From the sequence record PP047753: 64,000 nucleotides of DNA. One strand, 5' to 3'. The position numbers and the translations under genes are program-made. This stretch comes from Escherichia phage KEP3. The notes under the pieces are model-generated. The model saw only the letters and a program-made list of their open reading frames with translations. It had not been told where the DNA came from and made no database searches. How positions within the stretch are numbered: the first letter of the stretch is position 1; every line of letters starts with the position of its first letter. Shown here one piece after another: positions 1 through 55,081 of this stretch.

Positions 1-327
1 GAAAATTTGCTCATTCTGCCACATATCGTAAAACTTATCACTTACTTTTGTGACTGAAGAGGTGTGCATACAATTCAGGAACCATGACGGTGTACTAGCA
101 TCCATAATTGTTTCAAGTTTTTGTGTGACATTCACATCCATGCCTGCAACAACGTAATTGCCTCGCATTTTGCAAACAATTCTTCCAAACAAGATTGCAC
201 TTCTACCTCTTCGGTCGTCACAGTACATAACTGTGTCCCCGTGCTTAACATCTTGTCCGATGCTATCAACGCCTAATTTAACACCTGAGATAATGTCATC
301 ATAAGATAGCTTTTTTGCTTTAGACAC
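1..327 (-). CDS. hypothetical protein, N-terminal part (gene runs off window start)
   Basis: Open minus-strand frame from GTG at 325-327 preceded by GGAGA; absent from ORF track because truncated by window edge. Confidence 0.35.
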   Translation of the reverse strand, partial: MSKAKKLSYDDIISGVKLGVDSIGQDVKHGDTVMYCDDRRGRSAILFGRIVCKMRGNYVVAGMDVNVTQKLETIMDASTPSWFLNCMHTSSVTKVSDKFYDMWQNEQIF

Positions 328-652
328 GGTATTTCTCCAAGTTTCTTTTTAGATATAGCCAACCATAGTCAGTTCTTTCTACACCCATAAAGAGTGGAGC
401 CATCACAACTTTACCAAAAGTATTTCTGTGTTGGCAGATTTCAAAGGAATACTCTTTCTCAATATCAATCCCATATTTGTACAGGACTGCTTTTAAAACT
501 TGTTCATTATCCAGAAGTGTATCTGGAGTCTCACCATACTTCTCGAGTAACGGGTCATTCATAAACACCGTCATAGAAATATTGTAGTTTGAGAAGTGGC
601 TCTTCTGAGCCACGCCTTCTTTATTAATGTTCTGTGAATCCATTATAACCAA
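320..652 (-). CDS. hypothetical protein
   Basis: ORF track; tightly packed in minus-strand gene series. Confidence 0.5.
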   Translation of the reverse strand: MVIMDSQNINKEGVAQKSHFSNYNISMTVFMNDPLLEKYGETPDTLLDNEQVLKAVLYKYGIDIEKEYSFEICQHRNTFGKVVMAPLFMGVERTDYGWLYLKRNLEKYRV

Positions 653-1379
653 CCCCTTTTAACCAGCACTTCAGGTTATTAGCATCATAATTCAGTTTCG
701 GGTATGAGGTTACATGGAACTGCTCACCATCATAGTAGACAATATCTGCAATCCATAGTCCATTCTCTTTACAGAAATCTTTATCTGCTTTAGAGGTAAT
801 TGGATTAACTTCTACAAAACCATCTACACCCAAATCCTTTAAGCTACATACAATACCTTTGCAGATAACGCATGTGTCAGATACTACCACAAAAAGTTCT
901 TGGCTTTCAAGTTCTACAATGTATTCACCAAGCTGAACTTTAGGGAGATTAGATTGCTTCATAATCTTCCCATCGGCTGCACGAACAATTGCATACCATT
1001 CTTTACCATCAACTACTGACATTCTGATGATACACTCTTGACCAGTACGCTTCTCAATATCTGCAAGACGTTTTAAAGCTTCTTCATAGTCGTCTGTGTA
1101 CTTCAGGTCATTATTATGGCAAACAGCTTTCATAGCACCGTTATGGTCATGTTGTGACAGGTAAATCAAACCGTCAAGAACATATTGCAAATCTGCCTGA
1201 GCATCCAGTGTCTCAATGGGGTCTTTCTCTTCAATTGCTTTTACAAGCTCTTTTGCTTCTTCAAGCATACATAGAGATTGAGATTTCAAAGATTCCCAAT
1301 ACTCATTACTGTAAGGTTGCTTTTGAGTGTTCCCACAACGAAGATTCCAGTTTTTTACTGATTCTCTTGAGTTAAACAT
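624..1379 (-). CDS. MazG-like nucleotide pyrophosphohydrolase domain protein (tentative)
   Basis: N-terminal EEAKELVKAIEE...DAQADLQYVLDGL pattern resembles all-alpha NTP pyrophosphohydrolase E/D-rich helices. Confidence 0.4.
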   Translation of the reverse strand: MFNSRESVKNWNLRCGNTQKQPYSNEYWESLKSQSLCMLEEAKELVKAIEEKDPIETLDAQADLQYVLDGLIYLSQHDHNGAMKAVCHNNDLKYTDDYEEALKRLADIEKRTGQECIIRMSVVDGKEWYAIVRAADGKIMKQSNLPKVQLGEYIVELESQELFVVVSDTCVICKGIVCSLKDLGVDGFVEVNPITSKADKDFCKENGLWIADIVYYDGEQFHVTSYPKLNYDANNLKCWLKGVGYNGFTEH

Positions 1380-1618
1380 TTGGACTCCTTAAAATATCTG
1401 TTAACCTTTAGCTCTCGTGTTTCAATATATTCCAGATGCTCACGTAGCTCTTGACGTTTAAGCATTAGGTGCTGCATTTGAGATTCAACAGCTTCAACTT
1501 CTTTAATTATTGACTCTCTGGCACTTGCAAGAATGCGCCCAAGTTCTTCAATCTTGCTGTCAACTTTTGCTACATGACTCACAGCTTTACTTTTGTTAAA
1601 CATTTTATTCTCTCTCAA
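1355..1618 (-). CDS. hypothetical coiled-coil protein
   Basis: ORF track; heptad-like charged sequence. Confidence 0.4.
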   Translation of the reverse strand: MRENKMFNKSKAVSHVAKVDSKIEELGRILASARESIIKEVEAVESQMQHLMLKRQELREHLEYIETRELKVNRYFKESKCLTQENQ

Positions 1619-1624
1619 TAGTTA

Positions 1625-2122
1625 TCAAGCACAGTTTGCTTTCATTACCTTATGGATTCTTTTTTCAGCATCTTCATAAGTTTCTTTAGTAATAAACTTA
1701 ATTGCTGCAATATTGGCATTGTAGAAGAGTCTGAGCTTAGAGTCAATCCTTTTTGTCATTACATCAAATTTATGTTGAAGGTTTGCTTCACCATAAACTA
1801 GACCACCTTTTGTGTGGTAGGTTTGAATAATGTAAAAGTCAAAAAATTCTTTTCCAAAGCTCTCAATATCTTTTTTAATATACTCAGAAGAAGTCTCATA
1901 AGTCATCCAATCACTTTCCTTAGTGACTACCTTCTTCCGAGTCTTGCCAGCAACTTTTCTTTTGGTCACACTATTAAGCTGTTTCTTTCCGATATAATAT
2001 TGTCCGGTTTTCTTACAGTATACTAAATAGACAAAACCAAAATGTTTAGTGGGGTCAACTTCCCCACACAAAGATACCCAATGACCATAGGTGGGGCAAT
2101 TGCCAAATCCTTTAATCTTCAT
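1625..2122 (-). CDS. GIY-YIG nuclease domain protein
   Basis: N-terminal GFVYLVYCKKTGQYYIGKK matches GIY-(x9-11)-YIG motif. Confidence 0.5.
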   Translation of the reverse strand: MKIKGFGNCPTYGHWVSLCGEVDPTKHFGFVYLVYCKKTGQYYIGKKQLNSVTKRKVAGKTRKKVVTKESDWMTYETSSEYIKKDIESFGKEFFDFYIIQTYHTKGGLVYGEANLQHKFDVMTKRIDSKLRLFYNANIAAIKFITKETYEDAEKRIHKVMKANCA

Positions 2123-3152
2123 TCATACACGGCTCCCAATTATATTTCTTAAAAGAGAAATTATCTTTTGGATTTCTCTCTTGATATGCTATCCAGAAAT
2201 GTTGTTCCATTAACTCTAATGGTGTTTTGGTAATAGTCTGTCCATCCCATGACACATAGGTGTAAGACTCTTTTTTAGCATAGAGTTCATAGATAGCGTC
2301 AAGACACTCTTTATAGGTCTCTTTGCCATCTAAAGCATTCATCACAGCTACTTTTCCAGCACCTTTAAGGCCGAAGTAGTTGTCTGCATTATCTCCAGCA
2401 ACAGCCTGATAACACAAAAATTTAAAACCTACACCAACTGTTTTTGCAGCTTTTGGTTTTGATTTGATAGGACAATCCCAGATATCACCAACATTATTAT
2501 CAGCAATAAAAATTAGTGGTGACTTTTCATAAGTCATGTCAATACAATAAGTCCCTTCAGCTTGTCGAAGGTCTTTGTCAATACTCATAAGAGCAGCCTT
2601 CTTACCCATCTTTTCAGCTTTAGCAATTACGATTGAGTCTGCTTCGAAGCCACCCTTTAAGAGTTTAAACTCTGGTCTTGACAGAAGATATTCACGACAA
2701 GCAACTAAGTGTGTTGGTGTGACAGCCTCTTTACGGTTACCTTGATATTGGTGCTCAAGACCTTTAATGTCTTTATGTTTATGTACACCCTTCTCTGTTA
2801 AGTAACCTACCCAAGTTCTTTCTTTACCAACAACCTTAAGCCATTCCTGAAGAACCTGCTGAGTAGCCATGATAGCTTCTTTTTCACTCTTAGCTTCTTT
2901 CCAAGTCTGTCTTTCCCATTCATCTTCATCAAATGTCAGGCCAAGTTCTTCCACAAGGATTCTCTGGTCTGCTAACCATCTTGCAGCATCTTTTGCATTA
3001 TCAAATGGTTCAGATTCTTCTGCTGTGAGTTTATTGACATACTTATATTTTGCTTTCTCAACTACACAAGCACCTTTATAGGCAATACTGTCAGAGTCAA
3101 TAAAGACATGTGTAACTGAATCTGGAAGTTTTGTTAGCGTATACTGCTCCAT
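2112..3152 (-). CDS. 5'-3' exonuclease / flap endonuclease (RNase H-like)
   Basis: VFIDSDSIAYKGA N-terminal PIN-like acidic motif, SIDKDLRQ second acidic cluster, GVGFKF...GLKGAGKV helix-hairpin-helix-like segment. Confidence 0.5.
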   Translation of the reverse strand: MEQYTLTKLPDSVTHVFIDSDSIAYKGACVVEKAKYKYVNKLTAEESEPFDNAKDAARWLADQRILVEELGLTFDEDEWERQTWKEAKSEKEAIMATQQVLQEWLKVVGKERTWVGYLTEKGVHKHKDIKGLEHQYQGNRKEAVTPTHLVACREYLLSRPEFKLLKGGFEADSIVIAKAEKMGKKAALMSIDKDLRQAEGTYCIDMTYEKSPLIFIADNNVGDIWDCPIKSKPKAAKTVGVGFKFLCYQAVAGDNADNYFGLKGAGKVAVMNALDGKETYKECLDAIYELYAKKESYTYVSWDGQTITKTPLELMEQHFWIAYQERNPKDNFSFKKYNWEPCMNED

Positions 3153-3214
3153 TATGACTCTCCATATGAAAAAGCCCCATACTAAGTACAGGGCTTTAAA
3201 GTAACTTTTAGAGA

Positions 3215-4072
3215 TTAGTCTTCTGTATCGAAGTCTTCATCTTCTTCGTCATCTGGGTCTGGCAAGTCTTCATCGTCACCATCATCAGAATCATTTGAAG
3301 GTTTGTGGTCTTTTGCGTCTTCTTCAGTGATTTCACCGTTGTCTTCAACACCGTCAAGACCAAGCATAGCCAGTTCGTCTTCATCCAGTTCAGGTTCGCC
3401 GTTAGCGCCGTTACCACCAGTGTAAGGTACAAGAGTATCAATGATAAACTGTTCCTGAATAGGTTTTGTCAGAACATTGTTCTCAAAAGTGTAGAAGTGA
3501 GTAGAAAGAATCACACTACCAAAAGAACCGTTACCAACTGCAATATCTGGATGAATTACATCATAGTTCTTATCATCTTCATGTTTGTCAGATGCTTGAG
3601 CTTTGATTTTCTTCATCGGCTGTTTAACAGCTACACGCTTACCGTTTACTTCTTCAATCAGCATTACAGGGAATGACTGTTTAGCTGTCCACACAGCACC
3701 ATCTTTATAAGCTGCTGCACGACTTACTTTCAAGATGTAGTAAGTGTCTGCTTCAAATGGTGGTTTGCAACCAAACTTCTCTTCGAAGTCATCTGCATCA
3801 ACTGCTTCAGTAGTAACTTTATCCCAACCTTCTGGGTTTTTCTTAGACTTAGTAAACTCTTTAAATAGTTTATTACCATCTTCTGCCAGAATTGAAACAC
3901 TGTAGTTACAGTCTTTGCCTGGGAATTTCTTGTCAATGGATTTACCTTTTCCCGGACGTGGGGAAGTGTTCAGGTAATAAAACCAGACATCTTTCAGAAG
4001 GTAACGCAGAGTTTGACGTTCAGTACCATTGTACTTCTCTACCGGAGCTTTCATTTTAACAACTTTAGACAT
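3215..4072 (-). CDS. ssDNA-binding protein (tentative)
   Basis: Strongly acidic C-terminal tail (DDGDDEDLPDPDDEEDEDFDTED) typical of phage SSBs; position in replication module. Confidence 0.4.
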   Translation of the reverse strand: MSKVVKMKAPVEKYNGTERQTLRYLLKDVWFYYLNTSPRPGKGKSIDKKFPGKDCNYSVSILAEDGNKLFKEFTKSKKNPEGWDKVTTEAVDADDFEEKFGCKPPFEADTYYILKVSRAAAYKDGAVWTAKQSFPVMLIEEVNGKRVAVKQPMKKIKAQASDKHEDDKNYDVIHPDIAVGNGSFGSVILSTHFYTFENNVLTKPIQEQFIIDTLVPYTGGNGANGEPELDEDELAMLGLDGVEDNGEITEEDAKDHKPSNDSDDGDDEDLPDPDDEEDEDFDTED

Positions 4073-4108
4073 TATTTAAACCTCTATCTCAATTTATGAA
4101 GAGTACCA

Positions 4109-4137
4109 ATTCTAATTTGTTGATACTCTATTGTCAA
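4109..4137 (-). promoter_or_regulatory. sigma70-like promoter (minus-strand TTGACA, 17 nt spacer, TAGAAT) upstream of SSB-like gene
   Basis: Reverse complement of 4109-4137 gives TTGACA-17nt-TAGAAT. Confidence 0.4.
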
Positions 4138-4145
4138 ACATTAAT

Positions 4146-4294
4146 TACTGGAAGTTGTGCTTATCTTTAGAAGCTGCTTTACGTGCAGTTTTTCCAGTTC
4201 TTACACGCTTCTCTTCATAGTATTTTGCTGGTTTTCCAGCAGTGGCTTTTAAGGAATCCCCAAAAACTTTTTCAAATGCTTTAGAGTGTTTCAT
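4146..4294 (-). CDS. small basic protein (49 aa)
   Basis: ATG with GGAGA RBS, ATGA start/stop overlap with upstream gene; below ORF-track size cutoff. Confidence 0.3.
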
Positions 4295-4578
4295 GATATT
4301 CTCCGATATACTTGATATTCAAACACATTTTCTTTTATTACAAACAGCCAACCAATATTATGTTTAGGTATAGTAATAGTGACTGTGATTATGCTGTGAT
4401 GGAACTTTTCTTCTACCTCAACACCTCCATCACATTTCATGTAGAGCATTCTATAGAACCTATCAACCTTTGTCAAACACTCTTCCTGAAATTCATTTAA
4501 ACTTTTTTCTTCAAAGAAGGGTATAAACCCCTCTCTTTTATAACTATCACTCAGTTTCGAATGGGCAGTCATCTGCAT
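4291..4578 (-). CDS. hypothetical protein
   Basis: ORF track. Confidence 0.4.
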   Translation of the reverse strand: MQMTAHSKLSDSYKREGFIPFFEEKSLNEFQEECLTKVDRFYRMLYMKCDGGVEVEEKFHHSIITVTITIPKHNIGWLFVIKENVFEYQVYRRIS

Positions 4579-26670: not shown

Positions 26671-32054
<5,384 letters not shown>

Positions 32055-32055
<1 letters not shown>

Positions 32056-32294
32056 TACATTTTTCCTGCTCTTCTAAGTTCGTTGTAAGCAATTTCCTCT
32101 TTATACGACCTCTGAATCTCAAGAAATTGTCTCAATGATAATAAATCAGAGAATGTCATAGCAAAGAGTTGGTCAAGTGTTTCTTTACACCCTTCCATAC
32201 CATAAATAGCAAGCACAAATTTCATCTCGTCTGCTTCTTCATAGGTTGCCTCTACAGCAGCATCAGTCAGTGGTGTCTGTAGAGTGTTACCCAT
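32055..32294 (-). CDS. tail assembly chaperone, downstream frame
   Basis: Starts 2 nt after stop of 32297-32695 in the -1 frame. Confidence 0.4.
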
Positions 32295-32296
32295 GT

Positions 32297-32695
32297 TTAC
32301 TGAGAAGTTAGGCTTTTGAAAATGCTTGCTTCGAAAAAACTTCCGAAGTTTGCCTCCAGCGCAAATGCTAAGTAATCAATAAATTCACCGTAGTTTGCTT
32401 GGAAGTATGTATCAATATTAAGTGGGAAGTCATCAACAGTTGCCCCTTGAAATAACAGGGTAGCCATTTCTTCAAGATTAATTTCTTCAATTCTGTCAAA
32501 ACAAGCTTCAACAAGTTCTTTAAATGGAACCATTGGAGCTTCTTTCTTATCTTTATCAGTCAGGCTTGACAGCATCTGTGCAAATGTTGGAACAACAATT
32601 TTACCCAACTTCATAGACATCTTAATACCATCTCTTGCCCCAAGCAGAACGATATTTACTTTCTTACCATTAATTACTCTAGATTCTGTTTTCAT
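32297..32695 (-). CDS. tail assembly chaperone (tentative)
   Basis: Position between tube and tape measure genes. Confidence 0.4.
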   Translation of the reverse strand: MKTESRVINGKKVNIVLLGARDGIKMSMKLGKIVVPTFAQMLSSLTDKDKKEAPMVPFKELVEACFDRIEEINLEEMATLLFQGATVDDFPLNIDTYFQANYGEFIDYLAFALEANFGSFFEASIFKSLTSQ

Positions 32696-32715
32696 TGTGA
32701 TTCCTTAATACTTTA

Positions 32716-32752
32716 AAAGAAACAAAAAAGGGGAAGACCTTTTAAAGTCTCC
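32716..32752 (-). terminator. rho-independent terminator after tube gene
   Basis: Minus-sense GGGGAGAC...GTCTTCCCC hairpin followed by TTTTTTGTTTCTTTT. Confidence 0.55.
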
Positions 32753-32767
32753 CCCTTATAGGATTTA

Positions 32768-33214
32768 TTAAACACTTGACGCTGGAATTGTAGAAGTGTA
32801 GTCTAGCTTCTCACAACCAAAAATCCAAGTTTTAGAGTTCTGGTCACGACCAAGTTCAATCTGTGGTAATTCCTGCAACCAAGCATTAATACCAGTTGCC
32901 AGAACAGAGCCTGATGGGTCGTAGATTACGAAGTTAGAAGAGATATCTTCTTCAAGTTCCATATTGTCTTGTTTAGCTTGAATTGCAGAAAGCATCTGAT
33001 TAGAGAGAGAAGTCTGCATTAGCTCAATCTCAATAGTACCTGTCTTGTCTGCATTTCTTGTCAGAGCAACCTGACCACCTGCACCTACAACTGGTGTCAC
33101 AAGTGGTGATGTTCTCTGTAGACGTAAGAATGAGTCTGGGGCAAAGCCTTCAATGGCAATACCATTCCAGCTACACACAACGTCTTTAGGGGAATATTGC
33201 TGATACATAGCCAT
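32768..33214 (-). CDS. tail tube protein (probable)
   Basis: 148 aa directly downstream of sheath-sized gene. Confidence 0.45.
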   Translation of the reverse strand: MAMYQQYSPKDVVCSWNGIAIEGFAPDSFLRLQRTSPLVTPVVGAGGQVALTRNADKTGTIEIELMQTSLSNQMLSAIQAKQDNMELEEDISSNFVIYDPSGSVLATGINAWLQELPQIELGRDQNSKTWIFGCEKLDYTSTIPASSV

Positions 33215-43745: not shown

Positions 43746-43821
43746 TAAAATAACTTGGAGAATCCGAAGGGACTCGAACCCTTATAAACCTGTTTTGCAG
43801 ACAGGTACATAGCCATTTCTG
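43746..43821 (-). tRNA. tRNA-Cys: tRNA-Cys (GCA)
   Basis: T-arm GGGTTCGAGTCCC, 7-bp acceptor, anticodon loop CTGCAAA, CCA encoded. Confidence 0.75.
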
Positions 43822-43825
43822 TCAC

Positions 43826-43918
43826 GGATTCAAATTGGAGGAAGATACCAGACTTGAACTGGTACACCGATTTCTCAGCTACTGGCAGTTTAGCAAACTG
43901 CTCCCTTACCTTTTAGGG
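43826..43918 (-). tRNA. tRNA-Ser: tRNA-Ser (GCT), class II
   Basis: T-loop TTCAAGT, anticodon loop TTGCTAA, long variable arm. Confidence 0.65.
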
Positions 43919-43929
43919 TTAATCTTCCG

Positions 43930-44664
43930 TTATTTCTGTAATGCGTTCTTCATTTCTGGTGTTGCAATAGTATCAATTACACCAGTTTTACAAGCATCAT
44001 CAAACCAGTCTGGTAAGATACCTGCTAAGAACCCATTGATATTCGTTTTAAGGTACTCTGCAATAAGAGCAGCTTCTTCTTCAATCATCTGCACAACTTC
44101 ATCTGCATAAGCTGTAATCTTCGAGATACCTTCATTAATCTTGCTAACAGCTTGGTTAGCTAAATCAGAAACAGTATCAAGACCTTTGTCAATAGCATCT
44201 TGTAAGTCACTTAATACATCATTAACACCATCTAATGTACTGTTAATTGTGTCAATAGCTTTTTGACCGTACTCTGTAGCAACACCCATAATACCACTAA
44301 ATGGTGTACAACCGACTTGCTCTCCTGCTGCACCCATAACATTGGAATATCCTTTTGCTACCTGCATACGTGATGAAAACTCATCAATTGATTTTTGACC
44401 GTAATCTGTCAGTGTCTTAGTAGTTGATGTAGTGCTTGTCAGACTCGTTGTAAAGCTATTAAGCAGAACTGTTGTAAGTCCAGCAGCAATAAGCTTATCC
44501 TTTATTGTAGGGTCGGTTACAGAGCTAATAGAGTTTACAAGTGATGTAGAGGCAGCTACGGTTCCACCGAGAACTGCTGCACCAGTAATAAGGGGATTAG
44601 AAAACCCTCTACCGGTTTTTAAGAGATTAAAAATCTCCTTACCTTGTTCTGTCATCTCTTTCAT
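43930..44664 (-). CDS. hypothetical Ser/Thr-rich protein
   Basis: ORF track; start trimmed to ATG 44664 (AAGGTG RBS) to avoid overlap with tRNA. Confidence 0.45.
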   Translation of the reverse strand: MKEMTEQGKEIFNLLKTGRGFSNPLITGAAVLGGTVAASTSLVNSISSVTDPTIKDKLIAAGLTTVLLNSFTTSLTSTTSTTKTLTDYGQKSIDEFSSRMQVAKGYSNVMGAAGEQVGCTPFSGIMGVATEYGQKAIDTINSTLDGVNDVLSDLQDAIDKGLDTVSDLANQAVSKINEGISKITAYADEVVQMIEEEAALIAEYLKTNINGFLAGILPDWFDDACKTGVIDTIATPEMKNALQK

Positions 44665-44680
44665 TAAGCACCTTTGAAAT

Positions 44681-44758
44681 TGGTAGTCCAGTGGGATTTG
44701 AACCCTCTTCTCATGTTTTTCAGACACGCGCTTTAACCATATAAGCTACTTGGACTAT
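44681..44758 (-). tRNA. tRNA-Phe: tRNA-Phe (GAA)
   Basis: T-loop TTCAAAT, acceptor TAGTCCA/TGGACTA, anticodon loop CTGAAAA. Confidence 0.6.
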
Positions 44759-44762
44759 AAAT

Positions 44763-44838
44763 TGGGGTGACCTACGGGATTTGAACCCGTATAGACCATG
44801 TTCACAGCATGGGTCATTACCATTTATGATAAGGCCAC
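44763..44838 (-). tRNA. tRNA-His: tRNA-His (GTG)
   Basis: T-loop TTCAAAT, anticodon loop CTGTGAA. Confidence 0.7.
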
Positions 44839-44869
44839 ATTTAAGGACTCTCGTAAGAATCCTTAGAAG

Positions 44870-44946
44870 TGGCAGCGGCATAAGGATTTGAACCTTAATA
44901 AGACAGCTTCAGAGACTGCTGCATTGCCAGTTATGCTATACCTCTA
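44870..44946 (-). tRNA. tRNA-Gln: tRNA-Gln (CTG)
   Basis: D-stem GCAT/ATGC, anticodon loop CTCTGAA; one acceptor mismatch. Confidence 0.55.
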
Positions 44947-44950
44947 AATT

Positions 44951-45029
44951 TGGTACTCCATATCGGATTCGAACCGATACATAACACAGATTTTAAGTCT
45001 GGCCTCTCTGCCAATTGGAGTAATGGAGC
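44951..45029 (-). tRNA. tRNA with anticodon TAA (Leu codon UUA), class-I-like length
   Basis: T-arm ATCGG-TTCGAAT-CCGAT, anticodon loop CTTAAAA, discriminator A; short variable region. Confidence 0.55.
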
Positions 45030-45031
45030 AT

Positions 45032-45107
45032 TGGCGGGGGATGTTGGAATTGAACCAACTTCTTCGATTTCAAAGACCGAGGTTTTAACCTTGTAAACTA
45101 ATCCCCT
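45032..45107 (-). tRNA. tRNA-Gln: tRNA-Gln (TTG)
   Basis: T-loop TTCAATT, anticodon loop CTTTGAA. Confidence 0.65.
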
Positions 45108-45115
45108 TTAAATCT

Positions 45116-55036: not shown

Positions 55037-55066
55037 CATAGGCTCCTTCGGGAGCCTTTTTTTTTT
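55037..55066 (+). terminator. strong rho-independent terminator (GGCTCC-TTCG-GGAGCC + T11)
   Basis: Seen directly. Confidence 0.8.
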
Positions 55067-55081
55067 TCTAAGGAGAAAACT

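Follow-up and report, generated by a model that had tools for sequence, protein, structure and literature searches.

The two small tail chaperone reading frames of Escherichia phage KEP3 are very likely joined into a 213-residue fusion by ribosomal slippage on a T_TTT_TTC heptamer near the end of the first frame, and the site, judged from sequence comparison, looks like a genuine and conserved programmed -1 frameshift of the G/GT type, akin to E/E+E' of phage P2. We reached this reading from a 64,000-nucleotide stretch of the phage genome (sequence record PP047753; hereafter the window). The first-pass annotation of this DNA had proposed a frameshift of this type, and the proposal is supported by gene context, conservation, the lack of a Shine-Dalgarno (SD) sequence before the second frame and a fusion deposited for Salmonella phage Meda. 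The site is already known at the level of annotation; its sole element that may be new is a family-wide GAGG-13 nt-T_TTT_TTY cassette, which suggests a 5' stimulator like that of dnaX.

A 1.5-kb query around the site matched 294 phage records with a top identity of 99.7%, the great majority of them Felix O1-like myoviruses of E. coli, Salmonella and Shigella (Ounavirinae, Felixounavirus), and by these matches the window is that of a Felix O1-like myovirus in Felixounavirus. On the minus strand the genes run in the order sheath, tube, chaperone ORF1, ORF2 and tape measure (Table 1), and this order, together with Pfam and PHROG matches, bears out the earlier description of two small tail chaperone ORFs upstream of a tape measure gene. 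ORF1 scored 71.5 bits against Pfam PF21822, Phage_TAC_15 (cut-off 22, E = 1.2e-19, residues 9-124) and E = 8e-49 against PHROG 1613, tail assembly chaperone, and ORF2 with the -1 extension matched PHROG 4963, 'tail assembly chaperone', at E = 2.8e-55. The gene directly upstream of the chaperone probably encodes the tube, given its place right after the sheath gene.

Table 1. Features of the tail chaperone region and of the proposed shift site, in window coordinates.
Feature	Position	Strand	Basis or content
Tail sheath gene, 450 aa	33230..34582	-	PHROG 205 tail sheath, E = 1.6e-125; Pfam DUF3383
Tail tube gene (putative), 148 aa, directly upstream of chaperone	32768..33214	-	Pfam KPP10_Orf10; PHROG 280 virion structural protein
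ORF1, G-like tail assembly chaperone, 132 aa, zero frame	32297..32695	-	Pfam PF21822; PHROG 1613
SD-like GGAGG inside ORF1	32353..32357	-	Codons CTG GAG GCA = L113 E114 A115; 13 nt before heptamer
Slippery heptamer T_TTT_TTC, proposed -1 shift site	32333..32339	-	Sequence and phase
Dual-coding overlap, heptamer to ORF1 stop	32297..32332	-	Zero frame EASIFKSLTSQ*; -1 frame RSKHFQKPNFSV...
Predicted -1 extension, T-like, 92 codons plus stop	32055..32333	-	Re-reads C32333; ends at TAA 32057..32055
ORF2 as usually annotated, 79 aa from ATG 32294	32055..32294	-	PHROG 4963
Tape measure protein gene, 742 aa	29827..32055	-	Pfam TMP_3; PHROG 4036

Two features flank the chaperone frames. Between the tube and chaperone genes lies a strong intrinsic terminator (32728-32757, minus strand, T tail to about 32718), with a 13-bp stem containing six G-C pairs followed by TTTTTGTTTCT; the phage Meda record annotates a terminator in the same gap, and the element may leave the chaperone and tape measure genes less transcribed than the sheath and tube genes. 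At the other end, the tape measure ATG overlaps the stop codon of ORF2 and the fusion (TAATG, 32055-32059, minus strand), with AGGA about 9 nt upstream, and only frameshifted or reinitiating ribosomes would terminate there.

ORF1 ends with TAA at 32299..32297, two nucleotides follow (32296-32295), and ORF2 opens with its ATG at 32294 in the -1 frame relative to ORF1, as the first-pass annotation had described. Its statement that the -1 frame is open across the junction likewise agrees with the translation, this frame running without a stop for 106 codons, from about 32375 (76 nt before the ORF1 stop) to 32058, and the +1 frame closing within a few codons. The zero frame at the site reads GGA AGT TTT TTC GAA, the last four codons being S119, F120, F121 and E122, and T_TTT_TTC, composed of the last base of Ser119 (AGT), Phe120 (TTT) and Phe121 (TTC), is an X_XXY_YYZ heptamer correctly phased in ORF1. 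Its presence and phase (AGT TTT TTC GAA) had been recognized earlier, but the interval then assigned to the site, 32294-32330, does not contain the heptamer, which lies at 32339..32333; and the gap from its last base to the first base of the stop is 33 nt (11 codons) instead of the estimated 25 nt or so. The predicted fusion CDS, complement(join(32055..32333, 32333..32695)), would encode 213 residues, 121 from the zero frame and 92 from the -1 frame, with the junction ...EANFGSFF followed by RSKHFQKPNFSVNMGNT... and a GluC junction peptide of ANFGSFFRSKHFQKPNFSVNMGNTLQTPLTDAAVE. A PDB sequence search with the 213-residue fusion returned no meaningful match, and an exact-sequence look-up found the window's own fusion sequence absent from the protein collection.

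Because a phased heptamer would occur by chance in an overlap of about 25 codons in roughly 5-10% of cases (a rough estimate), a lone heptamer of this kind is weak evidence. Across both strands of the window, TTTTTTC occurs at 13 sites compared with 28.1 +/- 5.4 expected from dinucleotide-preserving shuffles, all 100 of which held at least 13 sites, a scarcity that would fit slippery T runs being avoided in general. The heptamer at 32339..32333 is the only TTTTTTC in the window that is both phased in a long ORF and accompanied by another long open frame. Elsewhere in the window, at 55057-55067 (plus strand), stands a run of about 11 T followed by C, a run of A on the minus strand, whose length is sufficient for polymerase slippage or for ambiguity in the sequenced length.

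The first-pass annotation had also suggested checking the heptamer in relatives. Relatives were taken from GenBank records and 80 IMG/VR loci and, after removal of duplicates, formed 29 ORF1 protein clusters (<60% ORF1 identity between clusters, local GC 0.35 to 0.65); the degenerate peptide pattern used to fetch the IMG/VR loci ended in ...FF, which biases the set toward Phe-Phe as amino acids and not toward any codon choice. T_TTT_TTY was found in 29/29 clusters, as T_TTT_TTC in 21 and T_TTT_TTT in 8. Heptamer, phase and -1 extension are kept by all the relatives examined, including those with protein identity as low as 23-28%, with the extension open for 76-124 codons in every locus, the +1 frame usually short, and the distance from heptamer to ORF1 stop ranging from 27 to 132 nt.

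We weighed whether the heptamer could be a by-product of a Ser-Phe-Phe motif and codon bias, alongside a -1 frame that is open by accident. In its favour, the protein always has Phe at positions 120 and 121 (F120 and F121), and a short overlap could without great improbability contain one phased heptamer by chance; codon choice, however, is fixed against background. In 29/29 clusters T is the final base of the codon before Phe-Phe (AGT, TCT or TGT), compared with 35% of other Ser codons in the same genes (P about 5e-14), and where this residue switches from Ser to Cys the T-ending codon is kept. The first Phe codon is TTT in 29/29 clusters versus a 42% background (P about 1.6e-11), and this extends to GC-rich phages: in the clusters of 0.60-0.65 GC, TTT makes up 3/47 of the other Phe codons and the slip site is still TTT. 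Nor does an accidental open frame fit the selection acting on it, since in comparison with SUSP2 the ORF2 frame shows 20 synonymous and 4 nonsynonymous codon differences, whereas this DNA read in either of its other frames has 0-2 synonymous and 22 nonsynonymous ones, a pattern of frame-specific purifying selection on ORF2. With TTTTTTC otherwise depleted in the window and the statistics on an upstream GAG codon (24/29 clusters, below) also contradicting it, we give the by-product account next to no credence, and across the sequences compared, conservation rules out a chance origin of the site.

Immediately after the heptamer both frames are conserved on the same nucleotides, the zero frame as GGIG.L and the -1 frame as R..RYW.P or RSKHFQKP. 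An attempt to locate the shift by the frame conserved just 3' of the heptamer was therefore uninformative, as both frames carry conserved motifs. In some distant clusters (L051, L054, L055, L061, L062, L064, L066, L068, L078 and L093) a GGTATTGG motif stands approximately 12-20 nt after the heptamer and is read as G-I-G in the zero frame and as R-Y-W in the -1 frame, which is compatible with either dual coding or an RNA element.

The two frames could alternatively be separate genes without recoding, with ORF2 translated from ATG 32294, for example by reinitiation, and the heptamer incidental. Most GenBank and RefSeq records, including those of Felix O1 and RefSeq EC6, do carry two separate CDSs, and in Felixounavirus, Mooglevirus and Suspvirus an ATG stands near the ORF1 stop, 2 nt after it. 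However, the 18 nt before ATG 32294 (CCTAACTTCTCAGTAAAC) are without an SD-like sequence; ATA replaces the start codon in a Felixounavirus contig (L023) of 99% identity; and outside these three genera, the first -1-frame ATG is absent or 28-74 codons deep, the ORF2 ATG being missing from most relatives. The records of Erwinia phage phiEa21-4 and Pectobacterium phage Wc4 annotate no ORF2. Every locus nevertheless keeps its -1 frame open from the heptamer onward, and two separate genes would leave unexplained why both synonymous positions making up the heptamer are fixed in 29/29 clusters; we judge this arrangement highly improbable. Because the ATG is not conserved, no SD precedes it and the frame stays open, the ORF2 domain would, family-wide, be translated by ribosomes coming from ORF1, and ORF2 is probably not an independent gene. 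In this particular phage, termination-reinitiation at TAA-AC-ATG could conceivably contribute to ORF2 translation. In phiEa21-4 (L011, NC_011811) and Wc4 (L010), an unannotated gap of about 235 nt between chaperone and tape measure (1612-1847 and 1624-1858 of the respective loci) corresponds to the -1 extension without a usable start codon; this gap being unannotated, the T-like domain is missing from both proteomes.

Returning to ribosomal slippage on the heptamer, we found a candidate stimulator on its 5' side. GAGG or GGAGG stands at exactly the 13-nt spacing seen in KEP3 in 57/63 distinct sequences and 24/29 clusters, and the invariant Glu114 codon is GAG in 24/29 clusters versus a background of 30% (180/603), computed on Glu codons before G in the long open frames of the same loci (binomial P = 5.5e-9; 0/200,000 Poisson-binomial simulations, with clusters taken as independent, reached 24). 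Since neighbouring synonymous sites (Leu, Ala/Val, Asn, Phe/Tyr and Gly codons) vary freely, the GAGG signal is probably not merely a product of shared ancestry. Sharma et al. (2014, PMC4066793) sought SD stimulators of -1 frameshifting 6-17 nt upstream, and the SD-like motif here falls within that range and is conserved beyond what codon usage accounts for. These codon statistics make GGAGG a candidate 5' stimulator of the slip.

On the 3' side, we found no stem-loop or pseudoknot 5-9 nt after the heptamer, and a 110-nt fold starting from the heptamer had a minimum free energy z of -1.38. This fold contains a weak stem right after the heptamer, and its only solid hairpin starts about 44 nt downstream. 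Slip sites and their stimulators are typically spaced 5-9 nt apart, and the stem abutting the heptamer was on that account judged too close to stimulate. The first-pass annotation had suggested checking downstream structure in relatives as well, and RNAalifold on six Ounavirinae gave no consensus structure downstream. With the stem too close, the hairpin at about 44 nt too far and no consensus pairs, a downstream stimulatory structure was rejected as a conserved feature. An Rfam scan of 31900-32800 yielded sub-threshold matches on the terminator hairpin only.

Directly before AAG-TTTTTTC, at 32343-32359 (minus strand), a weak six-pair hairpin, CTGGAG/CTTCGG, was flagged as terminator-like and holds the GGAGG. 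As a conserved element it was rejected, being intact in 8/29 clusters only and showing no compensatory pattern; the hairpin is probably incidental, and the GAGG within it is conserved in its own right.

The same change of frame could arise during transcription, were RNA polymerase to add one U on the T6 run so that normal translation entered the ORF2 frame. The site is a homopolymeric T run, reaching TTTTTTT or longer in 8/29 clusters, and in this phage the weak terminator-like hairpin stands directly before it. Efficient runs in bacteria, however, comprise about 9 A or T (PMC5009743), compared with T6 here and T6-T8 in relatives; the hairpin is intact in few clusters; and an SD-like motif fixed at 13 nt suits a ribosome, not RNA polymerase. 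We consider transcriptional slippage very unlikely and retain slippage by the ribosome as the preferred reading.

Phage_TAC_15 spans Felix O1-like, rV5-like and many uncultured phages, with GC from 35% to 65%. That a fixed GAGG-13 nt-U_UUU_UUY cassette runs through the whole family, with its SD element acting as a genuine 5' stimulator and setting the G:GT ratio with no 3' structure, is a tentative proposal to which we would give slightly less than an even chance.

From this anatomy and its conservation we infer that slippage takes place and that it is ribosomal, and likewise its efficiency, its stimulation by the SD-like motif and the roles of both proteins. Most ribosomes would reach the ORF1 stop and produce the 132-residue, G-like chaperone. 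A minority would pause on U_UUU_UUC, with the P-site UUU and the A-site UUC each decoded by tRNA-Phe, and both tRNAs (anticodon GAA) would move back one base to re-pair with UUU and UUU, after which reading in the -1 frame would continue for 92 codons to give a 213-residue, GT-like fusion whose N-terminal 121 residues are common with the ORF1 product and whose C-terminal part is the 'ORF2' domain. [quoted passage not shown] If lambda G/GT and P2 E/E+E' are a guide, the part common to both products would coat or bind the tape measure protein, the -1 extension would recruit the tube protein, and neither chaperone would end up in the virion; the arrangement likely serves to fix a low ratio of the two products, set by slip efficiency. 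The window also carries a cluster of 26 tRNA genes at 43756-49525 (minus strand), including tRNA-Phe(GAA) at 44681-44756, and this phage-encoded tRNA is the species that would fill both ribosomal sites on the heptamer.

Points that count against slippage on this heptamer include the weakness of U-rich heptamers in E. coli and the absence of a 3' stimulatory structure. U_UUU_UUA and U_UUU_UUU are far weaker than A_AAA_AAG in E. coli (Atkins review, PMC5009743), and Sharma et al. (PMC4066793) found UUN A-site codons and all-pyrimidine motifs to be shift-prone in that host. A weak U-rich heptamer would fit a low G:GT ratio such as the approximately 30:1 of lambda. We found no experimental detection of the fusion in Felix O1-like phages in the literature, and a preprint on gene essentiality in Bas63 does not discuss the chaperone.

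Several relatives already carry the fusion in their annotation. The GenBank entry of Salmonella phage Meda contains a joined CDS named 'Tape measure chaperone frameshift product', that of Citrobacter phage Maleficent has a joined CDS too, and fusions are deposited for Meda (AXY86324.1), Moogle (YP_009145710.1), Michonne (YP_009177317.1) and Maleficent (AYR00813.1). The Mooglevirus fusion is deposited from Michonne, Maleficent and phage Mordin, with a separate 212-residue product for Moogle, and the frameshift is stated in the genome announcements of Moogle and Mijalis (PMC4319497, PMC5543628). The deposited fusions follow ORF1 to ...GSFF and continue in the -1 frame as RSKHF... or RGKHF.... 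By exact-sequence look-up, AXY86324.1 consists of ORF1 residues 1-121 followed by the -1 frame, and the join therefore falls inside this heptamer; the same look-up for six alternative join positions found none. ORF1 of the window is 97.7% identical to that of Meda, and the annotated Felix O1-like fusions (Meda, Moogle, Michonne and Maleficent) share gene, heptamer and join with the site described here, with no substantive difference. In a separate record, LR597658.1 (Escherichia phage VpaE1_ev108, L003), product names across 1-4502 seem out of register with the genes: 'Ad1 adapter protein' is given for the sheath, 'Hc1 head closure protein' for the chaperone, 'Tc1 tail completion protein' for ORF2 and 'Tail sheath protein' for the tape measure, which is probably an annotation-transfer error.

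Among characterized systems, P2 E/E+E' (Christie et al. 2002; Xu, Hendrix and Duda 2004) shifts by -1 on TTTTTTG with no downstream structure (PMC3091744). The likeness lies in the contractile tail, a gene pair upstream of the tape measure, a T-run heptamer and the absence of downstream structure. The chaperone here, unlike that of P2, belongs to Phage_TAC_15, with no sequence link to P2 E found, its heptamer ends in C or T instead of G, and an SD-like motif stands 13 nt upstream; the P2 frameshift is experimentally proven, whereas that of the Felix O1-like group is known from sequence. As in lambda G/GT, the site lies between the tube and tape measure genes; unlike this myovirus, lambda is a siphovirus, and the chaperone proteins are without detectable sequence similarity. 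The lambda heptamer is reportedly G_GGA_AAG. Lambda makes two products from one start at a ratio of about 30:1, neither of them found in the virion, the shared N-terminal part binding the tape measure protein and the T part the tube protein (PMC5009743). The site also shows the gene position, open -1 frame, phased heptamer and conservation beyond coding need by which G/GT-type sites are recognized (Xu, Hendrix and Duda 2004). Like the dnaX and IS cassettes, it has an internal SD-like sequence at a fixed short distance 5' of X_XXY_YYZ, 13 nt in this case. For dnaX the SD spacing is said to be 10 nt. In dnaX a strong 3' stem-loop accompanies a shift of about 50%; unlike dnaX, no 3' structure is seen here and a low efficiency would be expected.

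The main value of these results is for annotation: the chaperone locus is likely one gene with two products made through a -1 slip, not two small genes, and most proteomes of this phage group, which is used in therapy, lack the 213-residue fusion. For phages with a Phage_TAC_15 chaperone, T_TTT_TTY with GAGG 13 nt before it offers a search rule, and the locus is a natural system for asking whether an internal Shine-Dalgarno sequence alone tunes low-level frameshifting. Current understanding of tail assembly is unchanged. Frameshifting in phage tail chaperones is usually described as resting on the slippery sequence alone; if the cassette is true, an rRNA-mRNA mechanism like that of dnaX would be at work in these chaperone frameshifts.
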